From: Amphiscolops sp. MND2022
Taxonomy: Eukaryota
DNA length: 64,000 bases
Assembly (NCBI GenBank): GCA_964187785.1
Contig: OZ076409.1
Location: forward strand, 66,652,001-66,716,000
Reading direction: 5' to 3'
The position numbers were made by a program, and so were the translations under genes. How positions within the stretch are numbered: the stretch's first letter is position 1; each line of letters begins with the position of its first letter. Below are positions 1-29,800 of this stretch, one piece after another. The notes beneath the pieces were generated by a model that saw nothing but the letters and a program-made list of their open reading frames with translations, did not search any database and had not been told where the DNA came from.

Positions 1-1260
1 ACTGATAAAGGTACTGCATTTACTTCTACAATTATTGCGGAGGTTACGCAGATTTTGGGCATCACACTCAAATGTGCAACGACAAAACACCCGCAGACAA
101 TTGGGAAATTGGAGCGAACTCATGCCTCATTGAAAACAAATCTCAAAATGGCATGTGGGGAATATCGCCGACAGTGGCACAAATACTTGCCATTAGCAGT
201 ACTGAACCATAATACAAGCTATCACGCCAGCATCGGTTGTGAGCCAACGAGAGTATTTCATGGAAGAATTCCATTTAATATTTTGGATCACAAGCTTGGA
301 AATAATCCAAACGAGCAAATTAACCCCACAACCGAATTTGCTGAAGAGATCCAAAACCGGACAAAAATCCTGATTGACAAAACAAAGCAGAACATTATGC
401 AGTCGTATATCAAGTACAAAGAATATTACGACCGCAAAGCAAAAGCCGCTCCACTAAAGGAGAACGAATACTGTTTTGTCCTACAGCCGAAAGCGGACAA
501 TCAGGGATCAAAAATTCCATTCCGCGATTACCGTTGGGTTGGACCATTTGTAGTCCAAAAGGTTTTGCCAAATGAAAACTATATAGTAAGACGGATCAAT
601 ACGAACAAAACCCAAATTTTGCATCGCATTCGTCCTAAAAAGTTTGTCCCTAATCAGCCTCTTGAGGACAATTTCCAAGAACAACAGTTGCAGCCAGACG
701 AAGAAATTGTCATTCCGCAAGATGATTTATACGTCATAACGTGGGAAACCGACTTTGGCGAGCAGCTAGTTACACGAGGCAACGAGACTATTCCGACCAG
801 CATGCCGAATGGCGAACGACCGAATGCGGCAGAAACGAATACAAATGACGTAGCCGAGAATGAAGCGGATTACATAATCACGAGTGACAAAACAAACTAC
901 GCTGACCACGCGGCGCGGAACCGGAATGAAAGATTAAATCATGACGTCACAAAAAGGAATGAAGCTAGTGAAGCGACTAGCAACAGCAAATCTGATTGGC
1001 CGAATCCGGCCGTTTACCCCAAAGGACGAGAAAAAACTTTACCGAATACGGATAAAAGACCAAAAAATGATGAAATTCTCCCAGAAAGAAATTTGACGAA
1101 TGAAAATGACGCACAAAATTCTCCGAAAAGGGGGGATGATATTATCGTGCCCGAAATATCCGAAAACGATGCTAGAAATGAAAGTCTGAGCCCTAGAGGA
1201 GGGAAATATAATCTCAGGCCTAACCCTAACCCAACATACTCAGAAGACTTTAGATACTAG
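1..1260 (+). CDS. pol: Gypsy pol polyprotein C-terminus (integrase core, GPY/F-type region, disordered tail); 5'-partial
   Basis: Frame open from base 1: TDKGTAFTS...HPQTIGKLERTHASLK (D,D35E core), WVGPFVVQKV motif, terminal GKYNLRPNP motif; no stops. Confidence 0.95.
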   Translation, partial: TDKGTAFTSTIIAEVTQILGITLKCATTKHPQTIGKLERTHASLKTNLKMACGEYRRQWHKYLPLAVLNHNTSYHASIGCEPTRVFHGRIPFNILDHKLGNNPNEQINPTTEFAEEIQNRTKILIDKTKQNIMQSYIKYKEYYDRKAKAAPLKENEYCFVLQPKADNQGSKIPFRDYRWVGPFVVQKVLPNENYIVRRINTNKTQILHRIRPKKFVPNQPLEDNFQEQQLQPDEEIVIPQDDLYVITWETDFGEQLVTRGNETIPTSMPNGERPNAAETNTNDVAENEADYIITSDKTNYADHAARNRNERLNHDVTKRNEASEATSNSKSDWPNPAVYPKGREKTLPNTDKRPKNDEILPERNLTNENDAQNSPKRGDDIIVPEISENDARNESLSPRGGKYNLRPNPNPTYSEDFRY

Positions 1261-1503
1261 AAAAGATTGAATTTTGGCCAGGAGACAAGCCTTGGACCTA
1301 TTCCTTTTCTTCTATCATTTCATTTCTTTTATTTTTTCAGTCCCATGCAACATGGTATTTTTTGAATAAATAATGGGACAACCGAAGAACCCCTTTCAGG
1401 TAAATAAATACAGAGGCATTGCAACAAATGGAGATACAAAAGACAACAAAACAGAAAAATAACAAAGTTTACAGTTCATAAGTACATAAATACATATGTA
1501 CAA

Positions 1504-4500
1504 TTAGTCCTTAGAACAACCGGCAGGAGATTCTCTGACGACGGACGAGGCTCTCGAGCGGGATCTGCTCCTCTCCATGCGCTTCCGTTTGCGGTCACCG
1601 GGCGGGACTACTGCAGGCATATCTCCAACGCTGGAAGACGTTGTCTCATCGAGGCCCACTTCACCTAATCCAGAAAGGGCGGAACGATATGACGTAAGAA
1701 GGGACTTGTAAATTCTATTCCTACCAAACTCGTCAACGGAAGTCCAGGGGTCGTATGAGGCAGATGAGACAGTTTGACTGAAGGAGGCAGAAAGCAGAGA
1801 AAACTTAGCCAAACTAGAGTCACTGATACAGAAGGCAGTGGAGTCCGGAACCCCTGACAGATAACTCTGGACGGGTAAAACCACGTCTGTGAGTCTGTTC
1901 TGATGTTTTGTAGTGTTGGCAGTTCCAATACGTACTGTTGGGTATTGAGGACTTTCAGACGTAATGCATAAACAACTCAACTTGAATAGATATAACAGAC
2001 GACTATGCTCCTGCATAAAGTCAAGATTGACAAGGAAATCAATAAGATCCGGTGATCCCTGGCTAACATCGAATGAAGGAAGAGATGAAGCCTTGAGATG
2101 GTCCAATAGCTCCACGTACTCGTCCCGGCAGGTGGACTCATTTGCTAGACTGACCCAAGACCTGAGCTGAAAGGTCCGATATAATAAGTCGAAGTGACGT
2201 AGCGCTACTTCAGTGGGCCTTTTTACCAATTTATAAGGGTCAAAAGCAGCAAGGCCACGAACAAGATTAGAGCAGAGTCCGGCCTGGTGAAGAACACCCC
2301 CTATCAGGAACTGGATGAAATTTTGGCAGTCTCGGACGAAATCATTCTTGATGGTTTCTGCGGTCTTCTGCACTGCGGACCTGTCAGATTTCTTCCCAGA
2401 ATGGATGCCTTCTGATTTTTGCCTACTAGCTTTAGCAACTTTGTTCTTCATATTCAGTCGAGTGAGGAACTCATCAACTGGGAGGAATGCCCCCTCACTG
2501 GTTTGGAAGTTTAGAAGCAAGAACCACGAATTTTCGAGAGGGATGGTATCAGGAGCATAACACCGGAAGCACAGTCTGTAGACGTAACGGGCAACTTCCC
2601 CGCAAAGATAGAAGCAGGAATCACGTCCCTTATGCAAGTTGGAGGAGAAACTAGAGTCGTCTAAAACACAAGATACTTAGGTGTATTGGTCCAAAAGGAA
2701 AATCCTAGACTATCAAAACAGACTAACAATCACTAATGAGGTGATAGAAGAATTCCAACTTCACTGGAAAGAACTCATCACAGATGAGTGACCATTCAAA
2801 GCTCTGAACCTGCAACAAAAGGTTTACGGTGCGACTTCAAGACTTCCCCGTTTAATAGGAAAAGACGAAACCTGAGTTGAGACACTTACTCTAGTTCTGA
2901 CTCCTTGGCCCAGTTGTTTGGGAGAGTGCTCGGTAAGGAAAGAGACCACGGACTTCCACTCGTCCATGAGTTCTTGACACAAGAAAGGCAGTGTAGACAG
3001 GTCTAGATCGCTCTTGGAAATAGCCTAAAGAAAAGGCGGAGCCACTGCAATAACCCGTCTAGAAACCCTTAGGAGTGCGAGTTAGTGCTACAATATGATA
3101 CGAGCGCCCACTTACTTTGGCCAGTTCGGGACTGCGCTGTATCCAGTCCTCATCGGTCAACCCGCCCAGGGAGATGACCAAGCCGCGTAGCACTGAGAAG
3201 AAGTCTATGTGGCCGAAGACACTGTAGTTCTTCTTGTGCATCAACTTGGACAGATTGAGCTGGTTGAACCTGAAGCAGCTCTGAACAGCCCGCACTGAAG
3301 TTGGGAGCTCATCTATGGTCCGGATTAGGTCGGCCGGACACCCAGAACAGGCCACTACGTCTGCCTTTGTTGAAATTGCAGACAAGAGTCGCGCCATGGA
3401 ACCTAACTCTCCAGTGAGGTCGGTGGTGGGTAGCCTACTGCGACAAGCGATGACCTTGCAAAGATATTGACCCTTCCAGAACCTCACGGACATGAAGCGG
3501 TTGGGCCCCTGGTCTTCAAATTCCAAGGCAAAGCATTGCAGACTGGAAATTTGGTCAGCGACGTCACTCATGGCGCAGTTGAAGAAATGCTGGAATATTG
3601 CCTAAAATGGACACAGACCAAATATTAATAACCCAGAAAGGGAAAAGTCCTGTGAGAAGGGAAAGCAAATAACACTTACAGTCATCCTCTCTTCTCCCCA
3701 GTCGAAGTCGCAAAGGGAAGCTTGATGGTCAGTAATGGAACTGACTTTGGCCCACATGCTCCGGAGGATGGTGATGTCGCCATAGCTCTGGATGAAATCA
3801 GCTACCATGCTTAGCTGAGTTCTTGCTCGGGACTCGGGAGTAACCAAGGGAGTAGTCCTACCTCGAACGAAATCCTCGTAGAAAGGAAAACGTTCTCCAA
3901 TATCCACTAACTCCACATGGATAAACTTGGGGAGCTCCTTGGCCAGTTCTATCTTGCTCAAGATCTTCCCATTTCTGCCTCGGACTCGGTGTTGGGTCTT
4001 GAGCGTAATTGGATCGGTACTTTTCAGATACTCGTACCTCCACCTCTGGTCCCGTCTAAGATGTTTCTCAGTTCTGTGGTGCCTGAGTATCTCCATTGTC
4101 CCTTTACTTCTAATGGAGAAATTCTTCTTACAAAGGTGACACCAGACCATGAAGGGGTTGTGGATCGGATCCGCTGGCCCAGAGATAAACGACCGGGTCC
4201 AACCGATTTTTGCGAAGAACTCCTCTCGCATTGGGACTCCACGTTGAGGTAGTCTCTTGCCCTTCGGGGTCTTCTTACTCGGCAACTTGGTCGTAGACCG
4301 CAGTGACTGTTCTCTCACCTCAGATAAAGTGATATCCTGACTGCTTCGGTCAGTTTCTTGACTACCAGTCTGCATAACTCCTGGCTGCTCTGTAGGTGAA
4401 ACAATCGGGACGTCTGTGGTTTTGACTGAAGTTTCAAAAGAGGCCGAAATCAAGGCCATTTCGCCAGCACTGTCGCTTTCTCCGAATGAGGAAGAGTCGC

Positions 4501-5629
4501 CAAGTGTGCCCCGGTCTATGGTGTCATGTCCCTCTGAATCCGTAGTTGACAAGTCACCGGTCCCGGCGTCGCTGGAATCGCTATCAACTTGCCTGTAAGG
4601 AGTCTGTGCTCTGGTCCTTGATTTGAAATGGTCAGTGCGTGATGGGGCGATTGTAGGACTGCCCCGGACTGCATCCAGGATCATTCTTTCCATAGTAGAA
4701 TGTGACATCCGAAGCGTTTCGTCAGTTAAGATGCGTAACAGGTGATACACCTGAGACTCTGTGAAGGCAACTGCTGTTTGTCCTGGTGGGAACCGAAAGG
4801 CATGTGTCTCATCGAAATAAGTTTTCAGTATGGCTCGTGCCCTTCCAGAAAGTTCAGGAGGCTGGACGTCAAAGCCTTGAGAAGTGGATGCCTGTGGGTC
4901 GGTCTGGTGCTGCCTGAAGACGGTAGTGTCAGGGCATTCACTGGTCTCTCTTCCAGATTCAGACATTCCAGGAATATCTCCATAGAGTGAAGGACATTCG
5001 GTACTGCTCGCCTCCCCGGTTGTCTTCTCAGCCTCACTCAAGTCGGTCAAGAACCGGACTTTGTGTTCCTGGGTGGGCAGCATAGGAACTTCATATACAG
5101 AAGATTCGCCATACTCGTCATCCAAGGTCCTCCTAACTGGCGGAACAACGGTCTCCGCTTCAGTGGCAGGAAGGAGCTCAGGTAATTGGGATCCAGGGTT
5201 GTTTACAACTGTTAGACCTGCCTCTAATGTGTGCAAGCTAGCTTGGGATATTCCAGCAGTCTCCACCGGTATTGGGGTGCTAGACCGAACGGGGACTAAA
5301 CTCTGGGGAACATAGTCATTAGTGGAAGCCTCAGGATTGGCCGTCATCAAATTGGGATCACTGGTAGGTGATCGTTCGTGTACTTGGCTCTGCTCGACCT
5401 CCATTTCTTGCACTTTAGCTTCTGCATAGGCATTCACGTCTACCTCACTTTCGACGCCTTGAGGAGAAATCACAGATCTGGCGATGTACGCCACACTTGG
5501 AACTGTACCTTCATTGGAAATTGTTTGCGGCAGCCCAGAAGGGCTTGATGCGTTCTCAATCTCAGAAGCCTGATTATCTAAACGAAAAGAGATAAAGTTT
5601 AGCGGTATGCTTCCTTGAAAAGTGTCCAT
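1504..5629 (-). CDS. 5-exon antisense gene, 1269 aa: disordered N-terminus + BED-like Zn finger + hAT-transposase-like domain. Exons 5629-3680, 3601-3116, 3024-2890, 2809-2728, 2660-1504
   Basis: Four short GT-AG introns (78, 91, 80, 67 nt; donors GTAAGT x3, GTTAGT; acceptors TTTAG x3, TGCAG) join three ORF-track ORFs and two small exons in frame (phases 0,0,0,1; 3810 nt). Finger WCHLCKKNFSIRSKGTMEILRHHRTEKH at ~4147-4061. Confidence 0.85.
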
Positions 5630-6683
5630 TTTACCGCGTTGGAAATCTTCCGGAAGTGTCTTGAAAATTGAATGAAGCGTGCTTTCACGCGTCTAGTTGA
5701 TGGAAACAGGAAGCGTCATGTGAACAATGTTTAGCCTTGATCAAGCTAAGCTTGTTTGAAAGAAAGAGAAAATCAAACCAACCTGGATTGGAAGACATGT
5801 TGCCGTAATGTTACTCGTACAGTAAATGCTCTCGTCGGGCGAAAGAAGCTGAGGGAAATGGCCGTGGGTGGACTGAAGTTAGAGGCCCTAGTGCTGCAGA
5901 GAGGGGATCGACAGCAGAGTTAGAGACAAAGGGAAGATGAATATCAGCTAGGAGAATCCCAGTAAGGGAAACAATTGATATATAAATAGAATTCGAATGG
6001 AATTAAAGATGAATAAAGGAATTGGAAAGTTGGAGTTCGTGGCTGAAGAAATTACCAGACTAATATTATATAGTTATTTACATATTTATAATAGTGCATG
6101 GAGTCTGCCAGCGAAATGCACAGAACAACCTCACCTTTCTACAGATTATCCAATTAATGGCCGGTTAAGGCCATTCGCCTTATTTTATTCTGCCGGGTTG
6201 TCCCATTACCCTAATTATCTCCACGCGAAATTATCGCCATTTGGAATTATTCGGGATTATTATTTTCCGCCATTTTATTATTCAATTTTACAATTTATCA
6301 AAGCTCAATTCTGATTGGCTGAAGCCCATTTTGAGAAAACTTTGCGACGCATGCCGTTAATTGCTTACAAGCGACCCGTTAATTACCCACTTGAGACTGG
6401 TGTAGTTGATATTAAAAATTCAAGCGTCATTCACACCTCTCATAGTGATGACGCCGATGAGGGGTAAACACTGAAATATCAAAGGGTGCCGATTAGTTAT
6501 GGAATTCCATTCAGGAAAGTTTACGACGGATCAGGACGACTAACCGATGTTTTAACCGCCAAATTGGAAACTTCGGAAAAGCCTTACTGGGCTAAATTCT
6601 TGAATCGGATAAATTCATTCTACCTAAAACTTCACCTCAAATCAGTTGCCTTATCAGCTTCAAAAATCGCTAAAAAACTAATA

Positions 6684-7466
6684 ATGAGTAAGTTCAACCT
6701 CTCAAGAAAGTTGTTTGACTTTGAGGAATATGAATCCGATGATTCTAGCAAATCAGTAATCTACATATCCAGTAGTGAAGAAGAATCCTCAGACTGGGAG
6801 ACCGATTGTTCGACAGATACCGAGCAGCTAATTGCCCGGATTGAAAGGGAAGTTACTTCCAGTCCCGTGCTAATCGGGGGCAGGATAATGACCATGGATG
6901 AGCCTGAAGATGAAGCGAGAGCAGGGCCAAGTACGTCTCATGTAGAAGAAGGAACGACACCGAAACTGGGCATTAAATATTTTGACAGGGAAATGTGTTA
7001 TGCCCCGCCAAGGAGAATTGAAAAGAAACGCATAGAGCTCTGTAACACAATAATACCCGTCCTAGAATCGCCAATGTCACCTCCGGAACACGAGAGAGGG
7101 CCAAGCTTGGACACTCCCCTTGCACAGTCAATCACGAGTAACTTCCATGCGTCCTACCATGTGCAAAACACAGTGCCCTATCAAAATGTCAGTGCGGTGC
7201 CTTATACGGGATGCATGGTTTGCGGCCGTTCAGTGGACTCGATCAAGAACGAGAAGGTGGAATGGTACATGCAGCGATCCACACCCAGAGATGAGCCTGA
7301 GCACATCACCAGGCTTAGGAAGGAAGCGTACGAGAACGGACTTAACGCCGGCTGTTTTCTTTTTATTACTCCCGCAGTGTCGCAGGCTGCCGCCTGTGAC
7401 GGTACGAGTGTGACAACGTCGGCAACTGGACAAGAATTCGTACCCGGAACATTACCCATTTATTAA
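6684..7466 (+). CDS. Retroelement accessory ORF3 (~260 aa from first ATG): acidic/Ser-rich N-terminus, CxxC, C-terminus inside the LTR
   Basis: ORF track 6486-7466 (GTG start); first ATG at 6684. VIYISSSEEE and GCMVCG motifs; the SxAAACDG-like peptide recurs at the start of all four LTRs. Confidence 0.7.
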   Translation: MSKFNLSRKLFDFEEYESDDSSKSVIYISSSEEESSDWETDCSTDTEQLIARIEREVTSSPVLIGGRIMTMDEPEDEARAGPSTSHVEEGTTPKLGIKYFDREMCYAPPRRIEKKRIELCNTIIPVLESPMSPPEHERGPSLDTPLAQSITSNFHASYHVQNTVPYQNVSAVPYTGCMVCGRSVDSIKNEKVEWYMQRSTPRDEPEHITRLRKEAYENGLNAGCFLFITPAVSQAAACDGTSVTTSATGQEFVPGTLPIY

Positions 7467-9235
7467 TTGGGATAATTTACAAACTTAGAACTTTCATACT
7501 GTTTTGTTATTCAATACGTAATATGTTTGTTGATGTTGTTAGCTTCGATATATATGTACTTGCACATGTAAAATTAGTCTGTTAAAAGTCACATTTGAAG
7601 ATTCAAATAGTGTATTTGTAACTTCAAAAGATTGAAAGGCGCTTTGCTATTGTAAACGTAATACGTGACAATGTAGCTGTACAGTAGAAAGGAAACGAGT
7701 TCAAGTGAACGAAACTCCTATTCCGGAGACGTCACTTGAGCTCAACTCCTTAGCCAATCACGTTGCTCCTTTTCTATAAGTAATACCACTTTGATTATGT
7801 AATGGCCGAGTATGGCCAATTGACTCAATAATTGTGCCTTTTAGTCAAACGGCCGGTACCGGCCACTTCGTTGGAATAGCCTGTATGTGTGTTAATTGGG
7901 TGTACTAATCGTAAATTACTGTAAATGTACTCTTAATAATGAATGAAAGCCCCAATGCCGCGCAATGAGCTTAATAAACCTAGTACTCACTCAAAAGCCG
8001 AATAAGGCTTTTTCCCTCTTTTATTACAGTGCTGAAATAATAAACCGGATTTGTCCATCTTCGGCATTGTCAGAAAGTGTGTTATTTTAATAATGCTGTA
8101 TTATTTTAAGCAGAACTGATCATGTAATATTTAATCTAGTTCCTACTCACGTTGAATAATAGGCGCGTGGTAACGCGTGTCACAAGCACATTCCGAAGAG
8201 ATGCCTTTTGCATTCCTTCAATAGACATTGGTATTTGTTGACAGGATGATGTTGATGATGTTTATAAACACGACACTTGAAGGTGCTGCTTGTGTACCCT
8301 GTTAAATATCATTCTTTTGATGTTGAATTCCTAAGGACTACCCTGAAACTAGGAATTTTCCCAATCGGGACATCACCCTAAAATATCTGCTTTGAAGTGT
8401 TGAACACCCTACCCGATGCTGTAATAACACTTGTCACATGACCCGTTGAGGCCATAGTCATATGATGTTTTCTTGATCAAAGAATTTGTGGAATGTGAGT
8501 GTGATCTTTTTAGGAGTATATATAGCTATATTTCTGTAAAAAAGGACACAAATCCCATACCTTTACTTTGATAAAGATTGAATTAATACAACGACTTTTG
8601 TCAGTTTTCCGGTTTTGATAATTGAATTATTCAACCGGGTTCTGTCTTAATGCCTACCACTAGAAAGCAAAAGAAAGCGAGAAAGTCTAGGGGACTTGAG
8701 ATGTTATCAGATATTGAAAATCTGGATATCATGTTAGGCGAAAACCATTTTGGTGCACGAGAAAGAGAAGGTAGCCTGAATAGCAATTTACCTAGGAGGT
8801 CTAGGAGTTTTGCTAGTAATGAGTCTGACAATGGGGACGGGAACGGAAGTAGACCCAGGGGAAATATTGAACCTAGGATGAGTGCCGAGTGTGATCGCAA
8901 TTCTATCACAGGTGATTCTAGCGCTGAAATAAACAGATTGTCTAGCGAACTGAACTCTCGTATTTCACGGGAAATGGATGAGATGATGAATTCCGTAAGT
9001 GTCCAAATACAGAGAGCCATAAACGACGCGATAAGTACTCAAGTACTTCCTCAAATCCAAAATGTTATAATGGCCGAACCAGGACACAGGATCAGAAAGG
9101 GATGGGACGTTCCGGCCGAGAGACCGGAACCAAATTCCGAAGTTCAGCGAGACCTTAACGCAAAGAGTAGCTTAAGAAACGAACAATATGTGAATCAATT
9201 GAACGGTGATTACCCTGACCTAAATGTTCATGACA
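7378..9235 (+). repeat. 3' LTR (1858 bp) of the cargo-bearing Gypsy element
   Basis: Starts TGTCGCAGG like the solo LTRs, ends CATGACA; contains a TATA-like box (~8516) and the MPTTRKQKK ORF. Confidence 0.9.
8650..9235 (+). CDS. LTR-encoded N-terminal ~195 codons of a putative gag ORF (open through the LTR end)
   Basis: MPTTRKQKKARKSR...LSDIENLDIMLG...RISREMDEMMNSVSVQIQRAI...VLPQIQ has homologues in all four LTRs; the frame is open across the terminal CA. The gag identity is inferred from position only. Confidence 0.6.
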
Positions 9236-9299
9236 CTAATTTTTTTAAAGCTTCTATTACAACACTTTTGGAGTATTAATAATTAAACGCTTAGTTTTT

Positions 9300-18014: not shown

Positions 18015-19205
18015 TCAATCCGAAATATCATCAAAAGATGGTAATGTGCTGGTCCTGGTTGCTTCGTAGTTGGAATCTCTGTTATTAGGAGCATAGGAAA
18101 TTTGGTTATTGTATTCATTTTGATTACGCTGATTATAGAGAACATTTCGCGCCGTAGCTGGGCGTTTTTTCCAAAGACATGGGCATATTCTCTTTAACTT
18201 GGGAACAACGATTCCTCGAAACTCGAACCATGTCCATGCATAGAGAAACGGATTCAGGGCGCAATTAACCAGAGGTGTAAGTTGGACCACTTGATCGAAC
18301 CAATGCTGCATAAGTTTTTCTTCTAGTTTGATATTAGCATTGCCGATTACGTAAACATACCAGAAGATTTGGTTCGGGACCCAAGCGAGAATGTAAAAGG
18401 TCACTATCAAGGTCAACCGGATGCAAAGTGACCTCATAAACGATTTCGCACATTGATATAGAAACTCAGACTGAGGGTCAAAGTCTCTGCGACCTTCATG
18501 GTGTCGTTTCGCCATTGCAGTTTCTCGGAACAATTTGAAGTAGCAGACAAAAACAATTATCAAGGGGATTATCATCACCAATGAAATCTGCAAGACCAAA
18601 CCTATGTATTTAAGAAATTTGAAATCAGTGCAACCGAGAACACACTGGACTTCGCCATCTCGTTTCCGAATGTAGAAATTAAAGGGGCTGTCGTTAAGAA
18701 TAACCAAACCGAGAACCCAGCTGAAAACAAGCAGACAACGGATGCGACATTTAGTCCCAAACAGAAAGGTGTACCATTTGGGTTTCAAGTCACCCTTAGA
18801 TGCACCCAAAAGTTCCATGGTAAGAAAGACAACCAACCACGAGGATGCGCATGTTAGGGTCAAGACGAGGAAGTTTGAAAGGTAGATTCTGCATATTATT
18901 TGACCGCCTATGCCGTCTGGGATTCCTGCTTTTGCTGGGTAACATATTTGGGCAATCATGCCTAGATTTTGAAGCATGTCCGTGAAAGCTAAGTTTTTCA
19001 ACACTCTGAGGTGATTGGTGAGGTTCGATGTTGAAAAAAGAACAAAATAAATGAAAGCGTTCATGATGATACCAAAAACACCGCCGGCCAGCATGCACCA
19101 AAAAAATCCATCGTGGGGATCGTATTTTCCATAAATAACCAAAGCATCATCGTCATCATCAGTTGTCTGTCTTTCAAAGTGGAATAAACCTGATTGAAGT
19201 ATCAT
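18015..19205 (-). CDS. Intronless class A (rhodopsin-like) orphan GPCR, 396 aa
   Basis: Seven hydrophobic segments; TM2 NLAFTD, TM3 Cys and ECL2 Cys, TM6 FYILAWVP, TM7 NCALNPFLY; the DRY position reads ELL. Confidence 0.92.
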   Translation of the reverse strand: MILQSGLFHFERQTTDDDDDALVIYGKYDPHDGFFWCMLAGGVFGIIMNAFIYFVLFSTSNLTNHLRVLKNLAFTDMLQNLGMIAQICYPAKAGIPDGIGGQIICRIYLSNFLVLTLTCASSWLVVFLTMELLGASKGDLKPKWYTFLFGTKCRIRCLLVFSWVLGLVILNDSPFNFYIRKRDGEVQCVLGCTDFKFLKYIGLVLQISLVMIIPLIIVFVCYFKLFRETAMAKRHHEGRRDFDPQSEFLYQCAKSFMRSLCIRLTLIVTFYILAWVPNQIFWYVYVIGNANIKLEEKLMQHWFDQVVQLTPLVNCALNPFLYAWTWFEFRGIVVPKLKRICPCLWKKRPATARNVLYNQRNQNEYNNQISYAPNNRDSNYEATRTSTLPSFDDISD

Positions 19206-20876
19206 TGTTGAATCGTAAAAAGCAAAACAAGGACTCTACCAGTCGAAGGAGATGATAGCCGCTGAGAAATATAAATGTACAATCCGATATTTGATTAAAA
19301 TCGGAATTTCAGAAAATATAGAATTGTGAAAGAATCATTCAACTGGCAAAACAGGTGCCGAAGTTCTTGAACAAAACATTTTTGACGTTCGTATGAATCG
19401 AATGAGCAAATAGAGAGGGTTGAACATTCTTGAATGACCCGAATGAGCAATTAGATGTGGACTGAAGCTATCTTAGTTCAACTCTTTTGCTTGGTTTGTT
19501 AGTGAATTTATCAAACGACAAGATTCGAACGAAACCATCCCAGCGTCGATTCTCATTTGGTGACGCCATAGCCACTGAATGTATTCAAGAAACTCGTTTG
19601 TCAGCAATTTCATTGATTCGAAAGTTGGTTTTACTTAATAGCATAAAATATGCATGACGTGTAACGGAAGAATGAAGATATTAACGACACAAGGCTTCAT
19701 TCTCAAAAGGAGAATCATTCAAATTGTTCAGCCGTATAATGCTTCCATTGTTATTTGTCATTCGTCGTACGCGTCTTTGCACTTAATATTCAAAATGTAA
19801 CCAGATTTTTCCACAGAGGAACCCTCCAAAAACTCGATTGACTCTCTGTTCAAACCCGGAAATATTGTGGAAGACCATATGAAAATGCGAGAGGCGATGA
19901 GGCATTTTTGGCATTTTTGAAACATTAAGGATATTGATTTTAACTAAACTAATTCTCACTTTTGAGTGTGGAATATATATTTTTGCAAAAGTGGACTGAA
20001 TTATTTTCATTGGGCAACCTTTTGGGCAGGCAGAAAGAGCCACAAGTAAAATCATCAAATCAAAGAAATTCGCTCACAGCGCAAAAATTTTTGAATCTCA
20101 AGTTATAGAGATTCAGTAACAAAAGGTTCTAATATAACCAAAACGTGAGAAACCTAAACAATATGCAACCTACATTTAAATGTTTCTTAAAGGGCTTTGT
20201 TGCTTGACTCCATAAAATTTCATGAAGGTTTTTGGAAAAAAACTAATGAAATCGAAAGTAAGTATGAATTCTTTAATGTTAAAAACATCTAGTTTCAAGT
20301 AGCTCTATAAATGAGTTTTCAATCCTCAGAAGTCACTCAAAACAACGTCATATTTAATGTATTTTAGTTAAATTGGTTTTCTTGGACCTCACAAGTTTGT
20401 GAGAACACCCAGGAGAAGTAGAAATTGTTTTTTAAGTGCTTGGATGACGTATCCGGACTTGGAGTGTGCCGGTTACTCGTCCCGGAGCTCTTAAATGAAC
20501 TCATGCAAAACAACGGGAAAAATAACATTAGATTTAAGAAAACTATTGAATTGACAACCTTTATTAACAGGCTGAAAGCTGATTTTCTACCTGGTATTCA
20601 GTTGTTAAACATATGAAAGTTTGAGTTCTTTGCTTAGTGAATAAAGTCGAAAAATTACAAAGAGTTTAAGTTCCAAATTATGTATCTGATACTAAAAAGT
20701 TTCAATTCTTAGTAAGTCTTGATCTGATCAACTTCGAAGCTTCCGTGGATGAAATACTTGCAACCGAACAGGTTGTCACTGTGTATCGATCGTATGTTTC
20801 TCACTTCGCTTCTCGAACACTATCTCGATCATGTTGATCACGTCATACAGCTATCATGACGTCACTGTTGATTACG

Positions 20877-23800
20877 TCATCTTCCCAAATTGAACGAAGG
20901 AACTGGTAGCTGTTTGGTCTTGAAAGCCGGCACTAAGCCCTTCGGACGACCAGAAGCTTCGTCTCTGGTAACCTAAAATGATCAAATGTTGAAGGTGAGT
21001 TAAATCTGGATTTCCCGACAGACCGATTATATTCAAGACCATAAACGGCTATCCAAATCATTAAAAAAGTCAATGCTCTTCTTACTACCTGCGTATGATA
21101 AACCTGGAATCATGTATCTTCCTGTAACCATAGGCCATTAACACGCATGCCCATTATTGTCAACCTGTCCACCATTTATATGTATGATCATGCTATGCTT
21201 GGAATCTGTTGTAGCTTGGAATCATACTTTTTTAATTATTGCAGGCTATGGTAAGCCTGTTCTTGTATGGGGGGCAAACCCTGGCGGTTAAACAAAGTTT
21301 CTTCCACTATAACAGATTTTCTGTAGACTTCATTAAAATACTGAACAGATTATGCATGCCATGGCTAATTCTGGCGTCTGAAGATAGCTGACAATATGAG
21401 GTTCTTAAAAAGTTAAATGCTAATCAAAATGTTGCTATTGAAAACCTTCTAATATACCAATCAAAAAATATATTTTTTTTAGCTGTTGGCTCTTGCGGCA
21501 TGACGTCACTTCATGCAATACTTTACATGTATACTATAAATAGTAGAGTGACAATTCAGTACCTGTCAGCAACGCTACGACTCAACATTGTGCTGACCTA
21601 TTCATTAACCTTTGAATACTCTTATTGAACAGAATAGATTCTACAGCACTACCCTTGTTTTCTTATCTTATTCCCAAGATGCAACACGGTGCAGTAGCAA
21701 GATGGACCATCAAAAAGCAACAGAGAGCGCAGGCTCTTCAAGCAGAGAAATCTCCGACAGAACAAACTTAAAAACCGAAAAGACACACCAAAAGATCACG
21801 TTAGAAACATTTGAAAAACGCGGTATACAGGGGGCGAAGTCATGGTGGAGACGATCCACGCAGTACATTAGAATGACCCAAAATGTCGATCTCAACGAAA
21901 TGACAACAGATCGCGAAATAATACGAAACTACAGGGACGATCTGGAACACCGGATCAAAGATTTGTTCATTTGGGCACTGGACGAGTGAGCAATAACGGA
22001 GATGACAAGAACCGTTAGGGACAACGACCCACATCGAATGGACATTAACCAATTATATTCGCTGTTCCGGTTACATTTTATATCGGATCGAAACAAATTC
22101 CATAATAGAGAGGACTTCTTTGAGATAACAAGAGAAAAACATGAAACAGCAGAAGACGTATGGGCAAGAATACTAAAGGTGGAAAAAAACTGCGAATTCG
22201 AAAACGTAACACCAGCAGAATTGATAGCATCAGAGTTCCTGTCTGTAATAGGCAAATCAACAAGCGATTACGAATTACAGAAGAAAATTCGAAAAAAGCT
22301 ATTCGACGATCGAAACAATAACAGCCTTGACACAGGAACACATCTACGACCGATTAAATGATTCAAACAATTCGAACGACGGAAGGGAAATAAAACTCGT
22401 ACAAGAACGACCATACAAACGAAAATGGACAGACAAATTCGATGCGGACAGAACAAAGACATTACAGGAATATCAAAAGCAAAAGCCAAAAGATAACCGA
22501 CGTGGACAGTGGGGGCACCAAATTGGTCGAGACAGCACATCTGCCCAGCAGAAACGGCAAAATGTAGAAAATGCAAAAGAAGAGGCCATTACGAAAAGGT
22601 GTGCAGATCAATGAAACGAGTAAAATACATTGATAGAACATTATCATTGGCAGAAGAAGATAAACTGGGAATACGATAGAATTCCGAGATTAGATAACAT
22701 AAAACAGAAGAAAAGCTTTTACAGTGCCACACTATTGGTTAACAACGTACCAATCAAACTCATCTTCTACAGCGGCTCACCAGTTACACTCTTTCCGGAA
22801 TGCAAAATTACACCAATTGAATCTTTCATGACCACGTATAAAGATGTAAACAATCAAAAGATTAACTTCGTAGGCCAGACGAATTCTACGGTCAAAACAA
22901 ACTAAGAAACAATCGAACTACCATTATTAATTTACAAAAGCACAAACGGCGCCGCTAATGGGACTGGACTGGATGCAACGGCTGAAAATCAACTTGAGTT
23001 CAAGCAACGACGCAATTCAAATTCACAACATAAAACTGGACAACACGGAAAGAAGGATTATAAAACTCCACAACGACTTCAAAGATCTATTTTACAACAA
23101 AAAAGATAAAAAATCTCTCGGTCAAAAGAAATCTAAAGCCGGAGCACAAATAATACAACACAAAGGACGACCAATCCCAACACATTCACAAGACCAAGTG
23201 ACACAAGAATTAAAACGCCTAATAAAACACGGTTATGTGCAACAGAAATTACCGAAGATTGCATTGTAAGCCCCGCAGTAATAACAGTGAAAGACAAGTT
23301 GGTAAAAAATGCCCTCGCTTCTTCCAAAAAACTAAACAAGATCACAGTGAAGCACAAATGCCAAATTTGGAAGAATTGATATCACAAATTTCGAGAAAAG
23401 TCTCTGGAGGATCAGACGGTGAAATAATAGCAACAGAACTCGATTTCGATTATGCATACGGGCAATTCAAGCTCAATGAAAATACAAAAAACATATGGAT
23501 GTTTACCGTAACGGGAGGAGATTTTACAGGATATTACCGTTTCCTGAAAGGCATTTACGGACTGGCCGATATTCCAACAAAGTTCCAAGAACGGATAGAC
23601 ACAACACTGGAGGCCGGCCTGGCTAGATGACATAATAATAGTCACCAAAGGAAACAGGGACAAACACGAAGCGGAAATAAGAGAAACAATGACCAAACTG
23701 GCGAGGTACAGATTAAACCCCAAGAAGTGTGAAATCTTCAAAAAAGAAATTGAATGGGTGGGGCCTAAAAAAGCTCAACAAGACATCAGACCACTCCAAG

Positions 23801-26800
23801 ACAAATTGGAAGCAATTAGCAAAATCCACATACCAAAAACTGAAAAAGAATTAATATCATTCCTGGGAGCTATCCAATACCTATCAAAATACATGCAAAA
23901 CTTGTCAGCAAACACCGATATTCTGAGAAAATTGCTGAAGAAACAAAACGATTGGATATGGACGGACAAACACACCGAAGCATTAAACAAATTAAAAGAA
24001 GGTATTACAAAAATACCATGCTTAGCACACTAATCCCCTCAGAGTGAAAACATAATTACAACAAACGCCAGCACGGAAGGATTGGGAGCAACTCTTTGGC
24101 AGAAACAAAAAACTGGCGAATTAAAACTGATCTGATTCGCAAGTCGATTTTTATCCAATACGGAGAAGAAGTACAAAATAAACGAACTGGAACTGCTAGC
24201 AGTACTCTGGGGACTGGAACACTTCAGACTACATATTTACAGAAAACCAATCGAGATATTAACAGATCACCAAGCGCTGGAACCACTCATTAAAAGAAAC
24301 ATGTCAAAAAAACCTACAGCGCAAAACTAACAATATGGTTAGATCGTTTGGCTCATTTCGATTTAAATATCAAACACATCACCGGAAAACATTTGAAGCT
24401 AACAGACTATTTGAGCAGAAATACAATATCAAAGCCAGAGCCTATTGAAAGATACGACGAAGAGTGCGTAATTAATTGCATACTACCATTACTTGAGTTC
24501 TTCAGTAATTACGGCAACATCACCGGTAAGTTGAATTCAGAAGCTAGAACGGACCAAATTAGGAAGTGTGAACAGAAATTCAACCAATCAGCATCAAGCA
24601 AAATGAACGAACCGAAGTATGTAGCAAACAAAACAAACAAGCGCAGTTCGTTGCTACCTCAACTTAATACAGTCAATCAAAGCACAATTAACATCTTGCA
24701 AACCAACCACGAAACAACAATGGTCATTCTCATATGCTGCATTGAACAAAATGAAACAGATGATCCATCGGAAGGAACAACTAACAAACCGTTGGAAAGA
24801 AGTGGTAGAACCCGGAGAATAAAGAACGTCTAATGGAGTCTGGAAAAAGTACAATCCGCAAAACATCACGGAGCGGAAATAAAACGAATCGAAATGATGT
24901 TAAATCAAAGAAGAAATAGACTGCTCTGGGACTGCATGGAAGAACAAGATGAAGAACCGGAGGAAGACACCACACGAAGACAAGAGCTAAACAGGGTGAT
25001 AGAAAAAATTAGAAGCATGCCGCAAAAACAAGAAGGAGAATAACCAGGAACAAACGACGGCACGTAAGAGACAATTGAGACAGAATCAACAAGTTCATAT
25101 GAATCATTTGGCGTCCCAGCAGTCAACTTCAGGAAACACCTCGGGACAACCAGTGTGGGGTATATTCAGATGGCACAGGCCAGTCACATCCAAAATGAAG
25201 ATAGATGGGACCTGGAGTAGAGTATCAGGCAAGTGGAGCAACAATTAACTTCAGACCTGAAAACCATTGCCACAGAAACAAATAATGGCGAAAAGTTACT
25301 GAAAACACTGGAATGCTTGGAGAAAAGAACGTTGGAACAAATACCTGACGAATACGAGCCATACCAGAAACAGTTGTCAACGAGATTCGTCGTGGTATTT
25401 TTTGATGACCAAATTTTAATCCCGAAGGATCTGAGAACAACTATAATTATGTTCCTACACAAAGGAAACGCGGCCATCAACAAGATGACGGCAGTGGCGA
25501 AACCATGCTGGTGGCCACGGATAACACGAGACACACAGCAAAATGCGATGAATGCGTTTCGTGTAAAATGGCAGGTAAGAACATTAAACCACAATTGCCG
25601 AAGACCGAAATTAACTACTAACCACCGGTAGATAAAATATACTGAGAAATCTAATTGGATTTCATTGGACCAATAAGAGTTAAGCACAATAGATTTTACA
25701 TATTACTTTCAATAAACAGGTACAGCAGATGACCGGGTGCATGCTATTGTGAAGCACCGACAGAACGAACAGCAAAAAAAATTTTGAAACAAGATGTTAC
25801 ACTGAATAGCGTACCACAAACCATTACAACAGATAAAGGCACTGCCTTCACTGGAAAAGAATTGAGAACTCTGTAAATATCTAAACATTAATTTAATCTA
25901 TGGAACACCATATCTACACACACCAACCGGACTGATGGAATGGGGTATTAGAACACTAAAGGGATACCTCCGAACGAACCTAGAGGAAGGACACAACATG
26001 AACGACGCATTAGGTCGTTCACTAAATGTAATGAGAACAACGGTCTATTCTAGCCTAACGGAACCACCGTTCGAACGTCATTACGGCAGAAAACGACGAA
26101 CGGAATTCCATAATTGTTTAAATGTGTCACCCAATAAACATTACAATGTTTCAGCGAGACCAGAGACGCTACAAGTCTATTCCTTTACCAATAGAAACGG
26201 AGCATACGAATAACTCGTAATGAAAGCCTCGAGAAAACTAAAGGAAGACGTAAGTAATAAAATCCATGCTTATTCCTCCAAAAAAACGCAACAGAGATAA
26301 ATTTGAAAGTGTGTACGAATACAAACCACAAACCGAGGTAGCGGGAACGAAACACACAATAGTAACGGATACAAACAAAATAATACATAGAAAACGAATA
26401 AGCAAACCTTTGAACTCAAAATTTCAGAACCCTCTTATCACGACGAGGGGGAAACCCGAGGGGGAAAAATTGGAGATTTGTACAGCCGGAACAATTAGAA
26501 GACAATGACATAACAGCAGAACACTCGGAGAGAAGCAGTACACCGGTGCTAGAAGAAAGTGTGCTGGATAATACACCGGAAATAGAGAACACAACAATCA
26601 GTACAGTGTAGGGCAGAAGCCGAAAAAAACTAAATAGGGACAGAAGCACCACTACAACACCAAAACCCGGACCGGAAATCAACGCAAGACCAACCACGGA
26701 GGACAACCCGAACGTGATCACTGTGGTGGATCAAAACGGTATCACCGATTTAATAAAAACTGAAAACATAGAACAAACTGATAACCAGAACGAACAAAAT

Positions 26801-29800
26801 ATCCGAAAATCAACTAGACTAAGATCAGCAAATCCAACAAATAGATACGGTAACCCAATCACATTCTGCCTATTAGAGGTAACACTGTTAATAATTGGAG
26901 CAACCACGATCGCCAGTAGAAAACCCATGATGCAACGACCGGAAGAATTGGAGAATAAAAACCCAGAAAAGGAAGAAGAAGAGGACTATACGGTAGAAAC
27001 CGTATATAAAATATTGCTAAATAATCGAATCATTCGGTCCAACTATTATCGTTTGAAATTTGAGTTTTTTTTTGTAATAACTCTTTATAGTTATAATTAT
27101 ACATGTAGTTACTTCCTAAAGAAGGGGAATGTGGCATGACGTCACTTCATGCAATACTTTACATGTATACTATAAACAGTAGCTGTGACAATTTAGTACC
27201 TGTCAACAACGCTACGACTCAACATTGTGCTGACCAATTCATTAACTTTTCAATACTCCTATTGAACAGAATAGATTCTACAGCACTACCCTTGTTTTCC
27301 TATCGTGTTCCTAAGATACAACCATTGACTTGTTGTTCATTAAAAGACTGAACAGATCATGCATGCCATGACTAATTCTGGCGATTTTACATATTACTTC
27401 CAATAAATTGGTACAACAGATGGCCGAATGCGTGCTATTGTGAAGCACCGACAGGAAGAACAGCAAAAAAATTGGAACAAACTGTTACACTGAATGGCGT
27501 ACCACAAACCATTAGAACAGATAAAGGCACTGCCTTTACTGGAAACGAATTGATAACTCTTTAAATCTCTAAACATTAATTGATTCTATGGAACACCACA
27601 TCTACACACACCAAACGGACTGGTGGAAAGGGGTATTAGAACACTAAAAGTATACCTCCGAACGAACCTAGAGGAATGACACAACATAAACGACGCATTA
27701 GGCCGTTCACTAAAATGTTATGACAACAACGGTCTATTCTAGGATAAAAGAACCACCGTTCGAACGTCATTACGGCAGAAAACGCCAAACGGAATCCCAT
27801 ATATATTTAAATGTGTCACCCAATAAACATTACAATGTTTCAGCGAGACCAGAGACGCTACAAGTCTATTCCTTTACCAATTGAAACGGAGCATACGAAC
27901 AACTCGTAATGAAAGCCCCGAGAAAACTAAAAAAGACTTAAGTAATAAATTTCCATACTTATTCCTTGAAAATAAACGCAACATAGATAACTTTGAAAGT
28001 GTGTACGAAAACAAACCACAAACCGCGGTAGCGGGAACGAAACACTCTATAGTAACGGATACAAACAAAATAATAAACAGAAAACGAACAAGCAAACCTT
28101 TGAACTCAATATTTCAGTTCCCCTTATCACGACGAAGGGGAAACCCGAGGGGAAAATGGGAGATTTGCACACCGGAACAATTAGAAGACAATGGTACAAC
28201 AGCAGAACACTCGGAGAGATGCAGTACACCGGTGCTAGAAGAAAGTGTGCTGGATAATACACCGGAAATAGAGAACACAACAATCAGTCCAGTGTACGGC
28301 AGAAGCCGAAGAAAACTAACCAGGGACAGAAGCACCACTACAACACCAACACCCGGACCGAAAATCATCACAAGACGAACCACGGAAGACAACCGAACGT
28401 GATCACTGTGGTGGATCAAAACGTTAACACCGATTTAGTAAAAACTCAAAACATAGAACAAACCGATAACCAGAACAAACAAAATATCGTTACAGGTAAC
28501 TTCGTTAAAAAATGGAGCAACCACGATCTCCAGTAGAAAGTAGAAAACCCATGATGCAACGACCGGAAGAATTGGAGAATGAAAACCCAGAAAAGGAAGA
28601 AGAAGAGGACTATACGGTAGAAACCGTAGATAAATTATTGCTAAATATTCGAATCATTCGGTCCTACTATTATCGTTTGAAATTTGAGTTTATTATTGTG
28701 ATACTTCTTTATAGTTATGAATCTACATGTAGTTACTTCCTGAAGAACGGGGATTGTGGCATGACGTCACTTCATGCAATACTTTACATGTATACTATAA
28801 ACAGTAGCTGTGACAATTTAGTACCTGTCAACAACGCTACGACTCAACATTGTGCTGACCTCTTCATTAACCTTTGAATACTCTTATTGAACAGAATAGA
28901 TTCTACAGCAATACCCTTGTTTTCTTATCGTATTCCTAAGATACAACCAAAGACTTGTTGGTCATTAAAAGACTGAACAGATTATGCATGCCTTGACTAG
29001 TTCTGGCGTCTGAAGATAGCTGACAATATGAGGTTTTACAAAAGTTAAATGCTAATCAAAATATTGGTATTGAAAACTTTCTAATCTGCCATTTGAAAAA
29101 TATTTTTTAGCTGTTGGCTCTTTTTCGATCATTCCGAAATTAACTTTTTTTTCTTGAAATTTTCTTCATTCATCGCTTCATTTAAGAGTTCCAATACTTA
29201 CTAATTAACTAGACTAAATTTGTAAACGTATTGAAAAAATAGAGTTTGAAATTCTAGCTTGAAGGAAATTTTAAGTCTATCCATCTATCCATTTGCTTGA
29301 GCCTATATAGACGACGATATCGAAAACTAGTCATTTTCGTTCTCGTTTTCATCCACCATGAAAAAAATGTCAAGTCAAATTCTGTTACCTTTGAATACCC
29401 ATCCCAGTGGTTACCATGTACTCTGAGTCGCTCTCCCTTTCGCAGAGGAATTTCCCCTTTGGATGCATTGAACAGGGTGTGGTCACTGGTGGCATGCCAG
29501 AATCGGGCACCTTGGCCAGCGTAATAGTAGAGGTCATCCAGAGACTGGTAACGCCATCCTGCGTCTTCCGTTCTTCTGTACACCTAAATTGTAATGATGG
29601 CTGATGAGGAAAAGAGAACAACAAAAAATTATTCAGTTTTTAAGCTGGACGATAAAAATGCATTCCTTGCAAGAATCTTGCAAGATCCTTGCAAATCACA
29701 CACGTTTTTCCTTGCAAGGAAATTAATTGGAAGAATCTTGCAAGAACCTTTCAAATAATCTATTTTCAAACCAAAAACCCAATCCCAGTCAAAAAAGATC

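Follow-up and report, generated by a model that had tools for sequence, protein, structure and literature searches.

A conserved two-gene cassette in a clade of animal Gypsy retrotransposons includes an antisense gene of predicted five-exon structure that probably derives from a hAT-type transposase

In the 1.07 Gb genome of Amphiscolops sp. MND2022, we analyzed a stretch of 64,000 nucleotides (contig OZ076409.1; G000:C1:66652001-66716000, hereafter the window), whose first part holds the 3' half of a young Ty3/Gypsy retrotransposon of 16,164 bp. Between its integrase and its 3' long terminal repeat (LTR), this element carries a cassette of two genes, namely a large antisense gene, predicted to be spliced from five exons, and a sense open reading frame (ORF) designated ORF3. 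Our main finding is that this cassette is an integral and selected part of a composite Gypsy family, not a nested insertion, and that it marks a whole deep clade, not a single family. The antisense gene probably derives from a hAT-type transposase. As to the system as a whole, we lean slightly towards the view that an animal Gypsy clade has kept an intron-bearing, catalytically dead hAT transposase as a trans-acting regulator with modular alleles, over a time sufficient for divergence to about 30% identity, together with a second accessory gene of non-AUG start.

A first description of this DNA, made from its letters only (hereafter the sequence-only reading), had proposed a composite family with its cargo between integrase and LTR, and the comparison with other copies in the genome bears this out. 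Copies collected by their cassette showed the order integrase, antisense gene, ORF3, LTR in 9/9, 14/14 and 19/20 cases (the exception lacks the large exon). Anchoring on the LTR gave 17 pairs among 40 listed matches; 16 are spaced 14.26 to 14.36 kb, and the remaining one, spaced 12.8 kb, retains the last antisense exon. When the integrase served as anchor, the antisense gene was present in 20/20 copies (every seventh of 150 matches, three of them shared with the cassette-anchored list), and no cargo-free copy was encountered among them. All 150 scored integrase matches, drawn from 19,304 first-look candidates, were at least 97% identical.

A relative at 29% identity (P0058) pointed to a second, distant group of families. 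The same layout was found at 12/12 of their loci (about 30% identity); the integrase core is 64 to 76% identical in 11 of them, and one has an integrase tail only. Trees of the integrase and of the last exon both separate the near group from the distant one. The cassette is absent from five loci of other Gypsy families of the genome, which have env-like genes and integrases 22 to 28% identical, and the integrase tree sets the window's clade apart from the env-bearing families. Since two database relatives have no close match in this genome (among the best candidates scored, 42% at most for one, and none at E 1e-60 for the other), the antisense gene probably exists in other species too. One copy of a distant family (L069) lacks most of gag-pol and keeps the whole cassette between its LTRs, and may represent a non-autonomous form.

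The cargo also lacks the marks of an independent insertion, as neither an 8-bp target duplication nor conserved terminal inverted repeats were found around the antisense gene. A 13-bp inverted repeat (1371-1383 and 6196-6208) was considered as a pair of hAT ends and rejected: it occurs in five near-identical copies only, and elsewhere such repeats are no longer than in shuffled controls.

The convergent five-exon gene of the sequence-only reading was recovered as one open frame of 1,267 amino acids (Table 1), and a conserved alternative first coding exon of 16 nt can be added to it. Splice donors and acceptors are retained across 43 other copies, whereas intron lengths depend on the lineage (72 to 230 nt for internal introns); it is this conservation of sites that points to splicing. 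For the 16-nt exon, the ATG, the length and a GTTGGT-type donor are kept in 42/43 aligned copies, and of the eight distant loci with an identified downstream landmark, seven have it; the gene probably makes two N-termini. Ratios of nonsynonymous to synonymous substitution (dN/dS), calculated pairwise against nine lineages with measurable dS, ranged from 0.03 to 0.24 on the antisense exons (0.04 to 0.21 on the last exon and 0.03 to 0.23 on the zinc-finger part); the near-identical copy L005 gave unstable values of up to 1.9, due to few changes. For ORF3, three comparisons with measurable dS gave 0.05 to 0.14. By these ratios, both genes are under purifying selection. The antisense frame is open from start to stop in 11/30 near copies.

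A hAT origin of the antisense gene is likely because signs that are individually modest, taken from fold, domain order, a language-model search and a zinc finger, agree with each other. The model of the second exon (3601-3116; predicted local distance difference test, pLDDT, 65.6) has the H-E-E-E-H-E-H order of an RNase H core. Against residues 153-269 of the Hermes transposase, it scored Z 6.7 with a root mean square deviation (rmsd) of 3.5 and 107 aligned positions (over 114 and 117 residues); further Hermes entries gave Z 6.2 to 6.9, and Foldseek gave a probability of 0.93 at E 0.13. The model of the last exon (pLDDT 78.9) aligned with Hermes 358-609 (Z 5.3, rmsd 6.3, 178 aligned), the sole long alignment among the 50 matches listed. 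The Hermes matches of these two separately folded exons are colinear, being separated by 118 residues in the gene and 89 in Hermes, so that the two models match, at modest scores, an RNase H core split by a large helical insertion, as in the hAT fold. An Atlas search with the last exon placed 24/30 matches in clusters with the hAT dimerisation family PF05699 (0.91, 151 shared features, a weak link). Upstream of the core, a conserved C-x2-C-x16-H-H-x4-H zinc finger may be read as resembling the BED finger of hAT proteins: its spacing is BED-like and its aromatic residues are in the right place, Pfam zf-BED being unmatched and the region giving weak C2H2 or zinc-ribbon Pfam matches only.

The catalytic residues of Hermes are D180, D248 and E572 (PMC2533014). 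Of the equivalent positions in the family, the first is occupied by E, Q, A or G and the second by S, L or T, and there is no conserved E-R motif; the CxxH motif is replaced, with F at the H position in 89/89 sequences. Because the DDE and CxxH residues are missing at the matching motif positions, DNA cutting by the antisense protein is very unlikely. The protein has a basic KRKR stretch resembling a nuclear localisation signal, and is without a transmembrane segment (highest 19-residue hydropathy 1.44).

Several observations weigh against this interpretation of the antisense protein. On the model of the second exon, Hermes is level with Argonaute (Z 7.1, rmsd 6.7), Hsp70 and integrases, and the Mutator-related ISCth4 transposase reaches Z 5.0; the RNase H fold is common, and such ties with Hermes are to be expected. 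The Atlas match falls below the tool's own trust levels, and the query with the second exon gave no hAT cluster. Neither the cassette ORFs nor 52 aligned members matched an informative Pfam family, PF05699 included. A search of the PDB by sequence profile was blank, as were profile and profile-profile comparisons with hAT ORFs of the same genome (36 loci, in shallow alignments), and Foldseek returned nothing under E 0.001 from the PDB and viral structures. The catalytic positions, moreover, were read from motif context, not from residue-level superposition. A word-based protein search found no longer, spliced relatives, and the search with the second exon gave 272 short unnamed ORFs; one weak match from a metagenome scan, on a bacterial-looking contig, was rejected.

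The antisense gene moves between elements as a whole, and many old alleles of it exist. In 43 copies, its exons travel together (Spearman correlation of distance matrices 0.96 to 0.97, and 0.90 for the first intron), whereas the gene is nearly independent of the integrase (0.19), of ORF3 (0.07) and of the parts of the LTR (0.22 to 0.37). Even where the integrase is at least 97% identical, the last exon is only 52 to 83% identical to that of the window. Block inheritance, together with such near-identical integrases, indicates that the backbone has been homogenised and that old antisense alleles are shuffled over it. Since the gene reassorts freely with the types of LTR and of ORF3, an allele-specific lock-and-key form, as in VANC, is disfavoured for the regulatory or anti-silencing role that the sequence-only reading had proposed, and any element site bound by the protein should be clade-wide. 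An allele-matched toxin-antidote pairing of the antisense gene with ORF3 was dropped because the two genes reassort freely.

The backbone carrying these alleles has Pfam families in the Gypsy order in its upstream pol (gag-asp_proteas, RVT_1, RT_RNaseH, Integrase_H2C2, rve), and a weak Integrase_p58_C match to the 3' end of pol. The integrase frame is intact, as the sequence-only reading had stated, and the near-identical 5' LTR preceded by CTAAT that it anticipated lies upstream of the window (locus L001, 3072-4929); the two LTRs are 99.3% identical over 1,858 bp, consistent with the young element proposed there, and CTAAT stands on both outer sides. Its claim that all frames are intact holds inside the window and fails upstream, where gag of this copy has one in-frame stop (L001 5343-5345). 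In 16 full-length copies, the distance between LTRs is 0.002 to 0.013 (Kimura two-parameter), and the 5-bp duplication is exact in 14, mismatched in one and missing in one; the family is therefore young and spreading. The three solo LTRs from which the LTR bounds had been set were all found in the window; they belong to related families and are flanked by 5-bp duplications (16353-14638, TACAG; 49345-47734, GCTAT; 55971-54419 or 54393, CTTCG). In the primer-binding site, 12 nt can pair with the 3' terminus of a host transfer RNA (tRNA)-Leu(CAG) with CCA added (one of three loci called as tRNA).

Some features of the element ends are less usual. Unlike typical LTR elements, none of the 16 near copies has a purine tract ahead of the 3' LTR (window 7368-7380), whereas a short GGGGA tract is present, in the same ORF3 codons, at 11/11 3' junctions of distant families. 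The LTR starts inside ORF3 in all families whose junctions were compared. The part of gag within the LTR has a dN/dS of 0.08 to 0.26 where measurable. Every LTR, solo ones included, encodes the first 140 to 195 gag codons under purifying selection, and thousands of solo LTRs can read into their flanks. Between the convergent stops of pol and the antisense gene, sense-strand AATAAA occurs in 28/32 scored copies (57 sites, compared to 18.0 expected from shuffles, the copies not being independent), and in only 2/6 loci of distant families; such signals after pol could terminate a shorter gag-pol message ahead of the antisense gene.

A divergent spacer of about 1 kb followed by a sense ORF3, both described in the sequence-only reading, were also found, ORF3 being open to its stop. 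ORF3 has an acidic N-terminal half, a C-x2-C motif and a conserved C-terminal part, and its conservation begins at an I-A-K-K motif. At the first codon, ATT, ATC or ATA is followed by G in 52/52 matches, with A at position -3 in 49 (one match is a spurious duplicate), and no upstream in-frame ATG exists in the rows compared. Because this ATH codon is conserved in strong context across the clade, ORF3 probably starts at a non-AUG codon, at 6666. ORF3 has no Pfam match and no transmembrane stretch (highest 19-residue hydropathy 1.34); with this value, that of the antisense protein and the blank Pfam results, no third ORF with the signal peptide and transmembrane anchor of an env was found. The spacer may act as a two-way promoter. 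Within it, the 8-mer AGCCACGA is present in 21/21 lineage representatives, whereas among shuffled 8-mers the highest share of both groups was 0.36, and AGGAAACG occurs in the U3 region of the LTR in 19/21 representatives (best shuffled word 0.45). Either AGCCACGA or AGGAAACG could equally be a host-factor site.

Table 1. Features of the 3' half of the element, in window positions
Feature	Position	Strand	Remarks
pol 3' end: end of integrase core, GPY/F-type module, acidic tail	1-1260	+	open frame, continuous with upstream pol
Gap between convergent pol and antisense stops	1261-1503		two sense-strand AATAAA (1365, 1403)
Antisense gene, last exon	2660-1504	-	predicted helical domain matching the Hermes insertion and C-terminal part; basic KRKR near 1580-1593
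Antisense gene, short internal exon	2809-2734	-	no other model with consensus sites keeps the frame; donor is GT in some lineages, GC in others
Antisense gene, internal exon	3024-2890	-	matched in 11/12 distant loci
Antisense gene, RNase H-fold core exon	3601-3116	-	predicted fold; catalytic acids not conserved
Zinc finger	4144-4061	-	conserved; upstream of RNase H core
Antisense gene, large exon	5629-3680	-	ATG at 5629 conserved (MDxFxGS); acidic, Ser/Thr-rich low complexity, zinc finger, helical linker
Alternative first coding exon, 16 nt	5798-5783	-	ATG + 13 nt; predicted splice to 5577 (acceptor at 5578)
Divergent non-coding spacer	5799-6665		separates the antisense and ORF3 starts; lineages differ by indels and share no frame
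Invariant 8-mer AGCCACGA	6037-6044	-	upstream of antisense starts; may be a binding site or part of a core promoter
ORF3, 266 amino acids	6666-7466	+	start probably at ATH, a non-AUG codon; ATG first occurs at 6684; runs 89 nt into LTR
3' LTR, 1,858 bp	7378-9235	+	TG...CA; starts within ORF3
gag, first 195 codons	8650-9235	+	encoded within LTR; continues into gag in the 5' LTR
Target-site duplication CTAAT	9236-9240	+	same five bases before 5' LTR

We propose that an ancestor of the clade captured a hAT-type transposase gene, in reverse orientation, between pol and the 3' LTR. Its introns, lying on the strand opposite to the genomic RNA, would survive reverse transcription, and, from what is understood of LTR-element replication, intron retention would follow from this antisense placement. 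The enzyme would then have lost its catalytic residues while retaining the zinc finger, the fold and the basic stretch of nuclear-localisation type. The gene would now be expressed from a promoter of its own in the 1-kb spacer, and its product would be a nuclear DNA-binding regulator which most likely acts through a clade-wide site to keep the provirus, or its internal promoter, active; candidates for this site are AGCCACGA in the spacer and AGGAAACG in U3. ORF3 would be a second accessory protein, inherited separately and expressed from the same spacer. Expression and DNA binding of the antisense protein are both presumed here. If the hAT origin is granted, an activating role seems somewhat the better bet; the full claim of a dead, hAT-derived nuclear DNA-binding regulator that keeps the retrotransposon active is our preferred reading, though slightly less likely than not. 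The weak linkage of the gene to LTR and ORF3 types counts against it, since co-evolution with a variable target would be expected to leave stronger linkage.

The same dead hAT-derived protein might have the opposite effect, repressing or insulating its own element or excluding rival copies, and be kept since self-limiting elements survive. The anatomy is equally compatible with restraint, convergent transcription could itself damp pol, and the coexistence of many old alleles, 52 to 85% identical in the last exon, on near-identical integrases is what competing or balanced alleles would produce. Such a role is nevertheless unlikely for a clade as successful as the integrase counts and LTR distances show, and no allele-specific linkage to LTRs was found. 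Less likely still is a role after transcription, in which the protein would bind the complementary DNA or the integrase complex, and aid nuclear entry or direct integration by the end-holding and oligomerisation of a transposase: alleles swap freely over integrase types, and the target duplications vary in sequence and have the ordinary length of 5 bp, not one of 8 bp. It would nonetheless suit the retention of a whole transposase scaffold, not of the zinc finger alone, and the odd ends of the subfamily, which lack a purine tract and have LTRs overlapped by ORF3 and gag; nuclear entry has also been proposed for plant antisense ORFs (PMC7264820).

Origin outside hAT has to be weighed as well. 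Some other zinc-finger protein of RNase H fold, for example one from another DDE superfamily such as Mutator or a captured host nuclease-fold gene, might serve to counter small-RNA or chromatin defence, and here the blank outcome of every sequence test for hAT joins the Argonaute and ISCth4 scores on the second exon. Against these stands Hermes, which alone matches both models, in colinear order and with a nearly gap-free core, and we regard a non-hAT origin as doubtful. It is highly improbable that the gene is a passenger, that is, a nested DNA transposon or captured fragment riding without benefit. The low proportion of fully open antisense frames and the inverted repeat flanking the gene in this copy would fit a passenger, but broken copies are expected after insertion and the repeat is not conserved, whereas purifying selection is strong with dS saturated between lineages, splice sites are retained, and every integrase-anchored copy tested has the gene.

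The preferred reading, a dead hAT-derived regulator in a Gypsy element, has partial counterparts in known systems. Plant elements of the Retand/Tat type (Grande gene23, RIRE2, Retand TRP28/PF04195) also carry antisense ORFs. They are known from plants only, and TRP28 is a small domain of unknown role, whereas an animal element here carries a multi-exon gene with what appears to be a whole transposase scaffold; PF04195 was not matched by Pfam in the cassette ORFs or the 52 aligned members, and neither of the two papers on these plant elements uses the word 'intron' in its main text. The HBZ gene of human T-cell leukaemia virus type 1 is spliced. It lies antisense in the 3' portion of its retroelement and has a nuclear, regulatory role (PMC11963269). 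HBZ is a retroviral basic leucine zipper protein driven from the 3' LTR, whereas here the start lies in an internal divergent spacer and the predicted fold differs. In its predicted architecture, the antisense protein resembles Hermes-type hAT proteins and ZBED: a zinc finger precedes an RNase H core that is interrupted by a large helical insertion. Some hAT proteins, inactive or domesticated, serve as transcription factors (ZBED), and regulatory reuse is common (PMC10027918); here, in contrast, the DDE and CxxH residues, terminal repeats and 8-bp duplication are missing, and the protein would have been domesticated and amplified by a retrotransposon, not fixed as a host gene.

Among animals, LTR elements of bdelloid rotifers have captured ORF3s (GDSL esterase, DEDDy exonuclease, env), the non-env extras being shared between element types (PMC5408684). 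They resemble the present elements in having extra ORFs, but these, as far as that account was consulted, are enzymes in ORF3 position, and it describes there no antisense gene that is spliced or derived from a transposase. Other elements encode accessory proteins with an established or suggested action against silencing via DNA motifs, such as VANC of VANDAL elements and the Plant Mobile Domain of Gypsy elements and Mutator-like elements (MULEs) (PMC6719617, PMC5418596, bioRxiv 10.1101/2024.09.27.615353), and it is mainly in plants that counter-defence by proteins of the element itself is well established (PMC6719617). VANC is family-specific and bound to its own repeated motif, whereas the antisense alleles reassort with LTRs; the Plant Mobile Domain, shared by Gypsy elements and DNA transposons, went from host genes to MULEs, whereas here a transposase scaffold would have gone to Gypsy. 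The present element is a Gypsy element, neither Retand nor env-bearing, and its antisense gene is no active hAT transposon; in its mode of action, the gene would compare best with the antisense ORFs of plant Retand elements, and perhaps with VANC or ZBED proteins. We found no animal Gypsy element with a spliced, transposase-derived antisense gene in the literature, Repbase, Dfam, supplements and most subscription journals lying outside the search; the family could well be listed in a repeat library that does not interpret it in this way.

Hosts are known to domesticate transposases. If our reading is true, the domesticator is another mobile element and the product is selected for the benefit of that element, so that a class I element would have tamed a class II enzyme and put it to regulatory use. 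With young copies in the hundreds, numerous natural alleles, natural deletion copies and one invariant candidate site, the clade offers a direct test of self-regulation or silencing resistance in animal LTR elements. Three textbook habits are also broken, by a gag that starts 195 codons inside the LTR, by a spreading subfamily that has no purine tract, and by a probable non-AUG ORF.

Other observations concern the rest of the window and of the genome. In the window, a rhodopsin-family seven-transmembrane receptor ORF lies at 18018-19235 (minus strand); it indicates an animal host, and proteins like it may occur in acoel flatworms. An intronless ORF of 749 amino acids lies at 44335-46581 (plus strand), which has no Pfam match and a basic, low-complexity C-terminal half. 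Decayed Gypsy elements of another clade occupy 21300-29100 and 31500-34000, one of them with a tandem duplication of about 1.65 kb, and a satellite of 22-bp units with higher-order spacing extends from 37203 to about 40500. Elsewhere, an unrelated env-bearing Gypsy family has, after env, an extra ORF of about 370 to 400 amino acids (L132 5016-6119, L133 4795-5985, L134 739-1860) with an HPDK motif, which we take to be a J-domain (DnaJ) signature. A further high-copy Gypsy family (L130 2329-5761) has a pol of 1,610 amino acids and an env-like ORF, followed by an ORF of 282 amino acids of unknown kind. Finally, tRNA-Leu-like ends form a large tandem array at G000:C8:35587799-35649192, mostly at a spacing of about 296 bp, with 818 pattern matches genome-wide.

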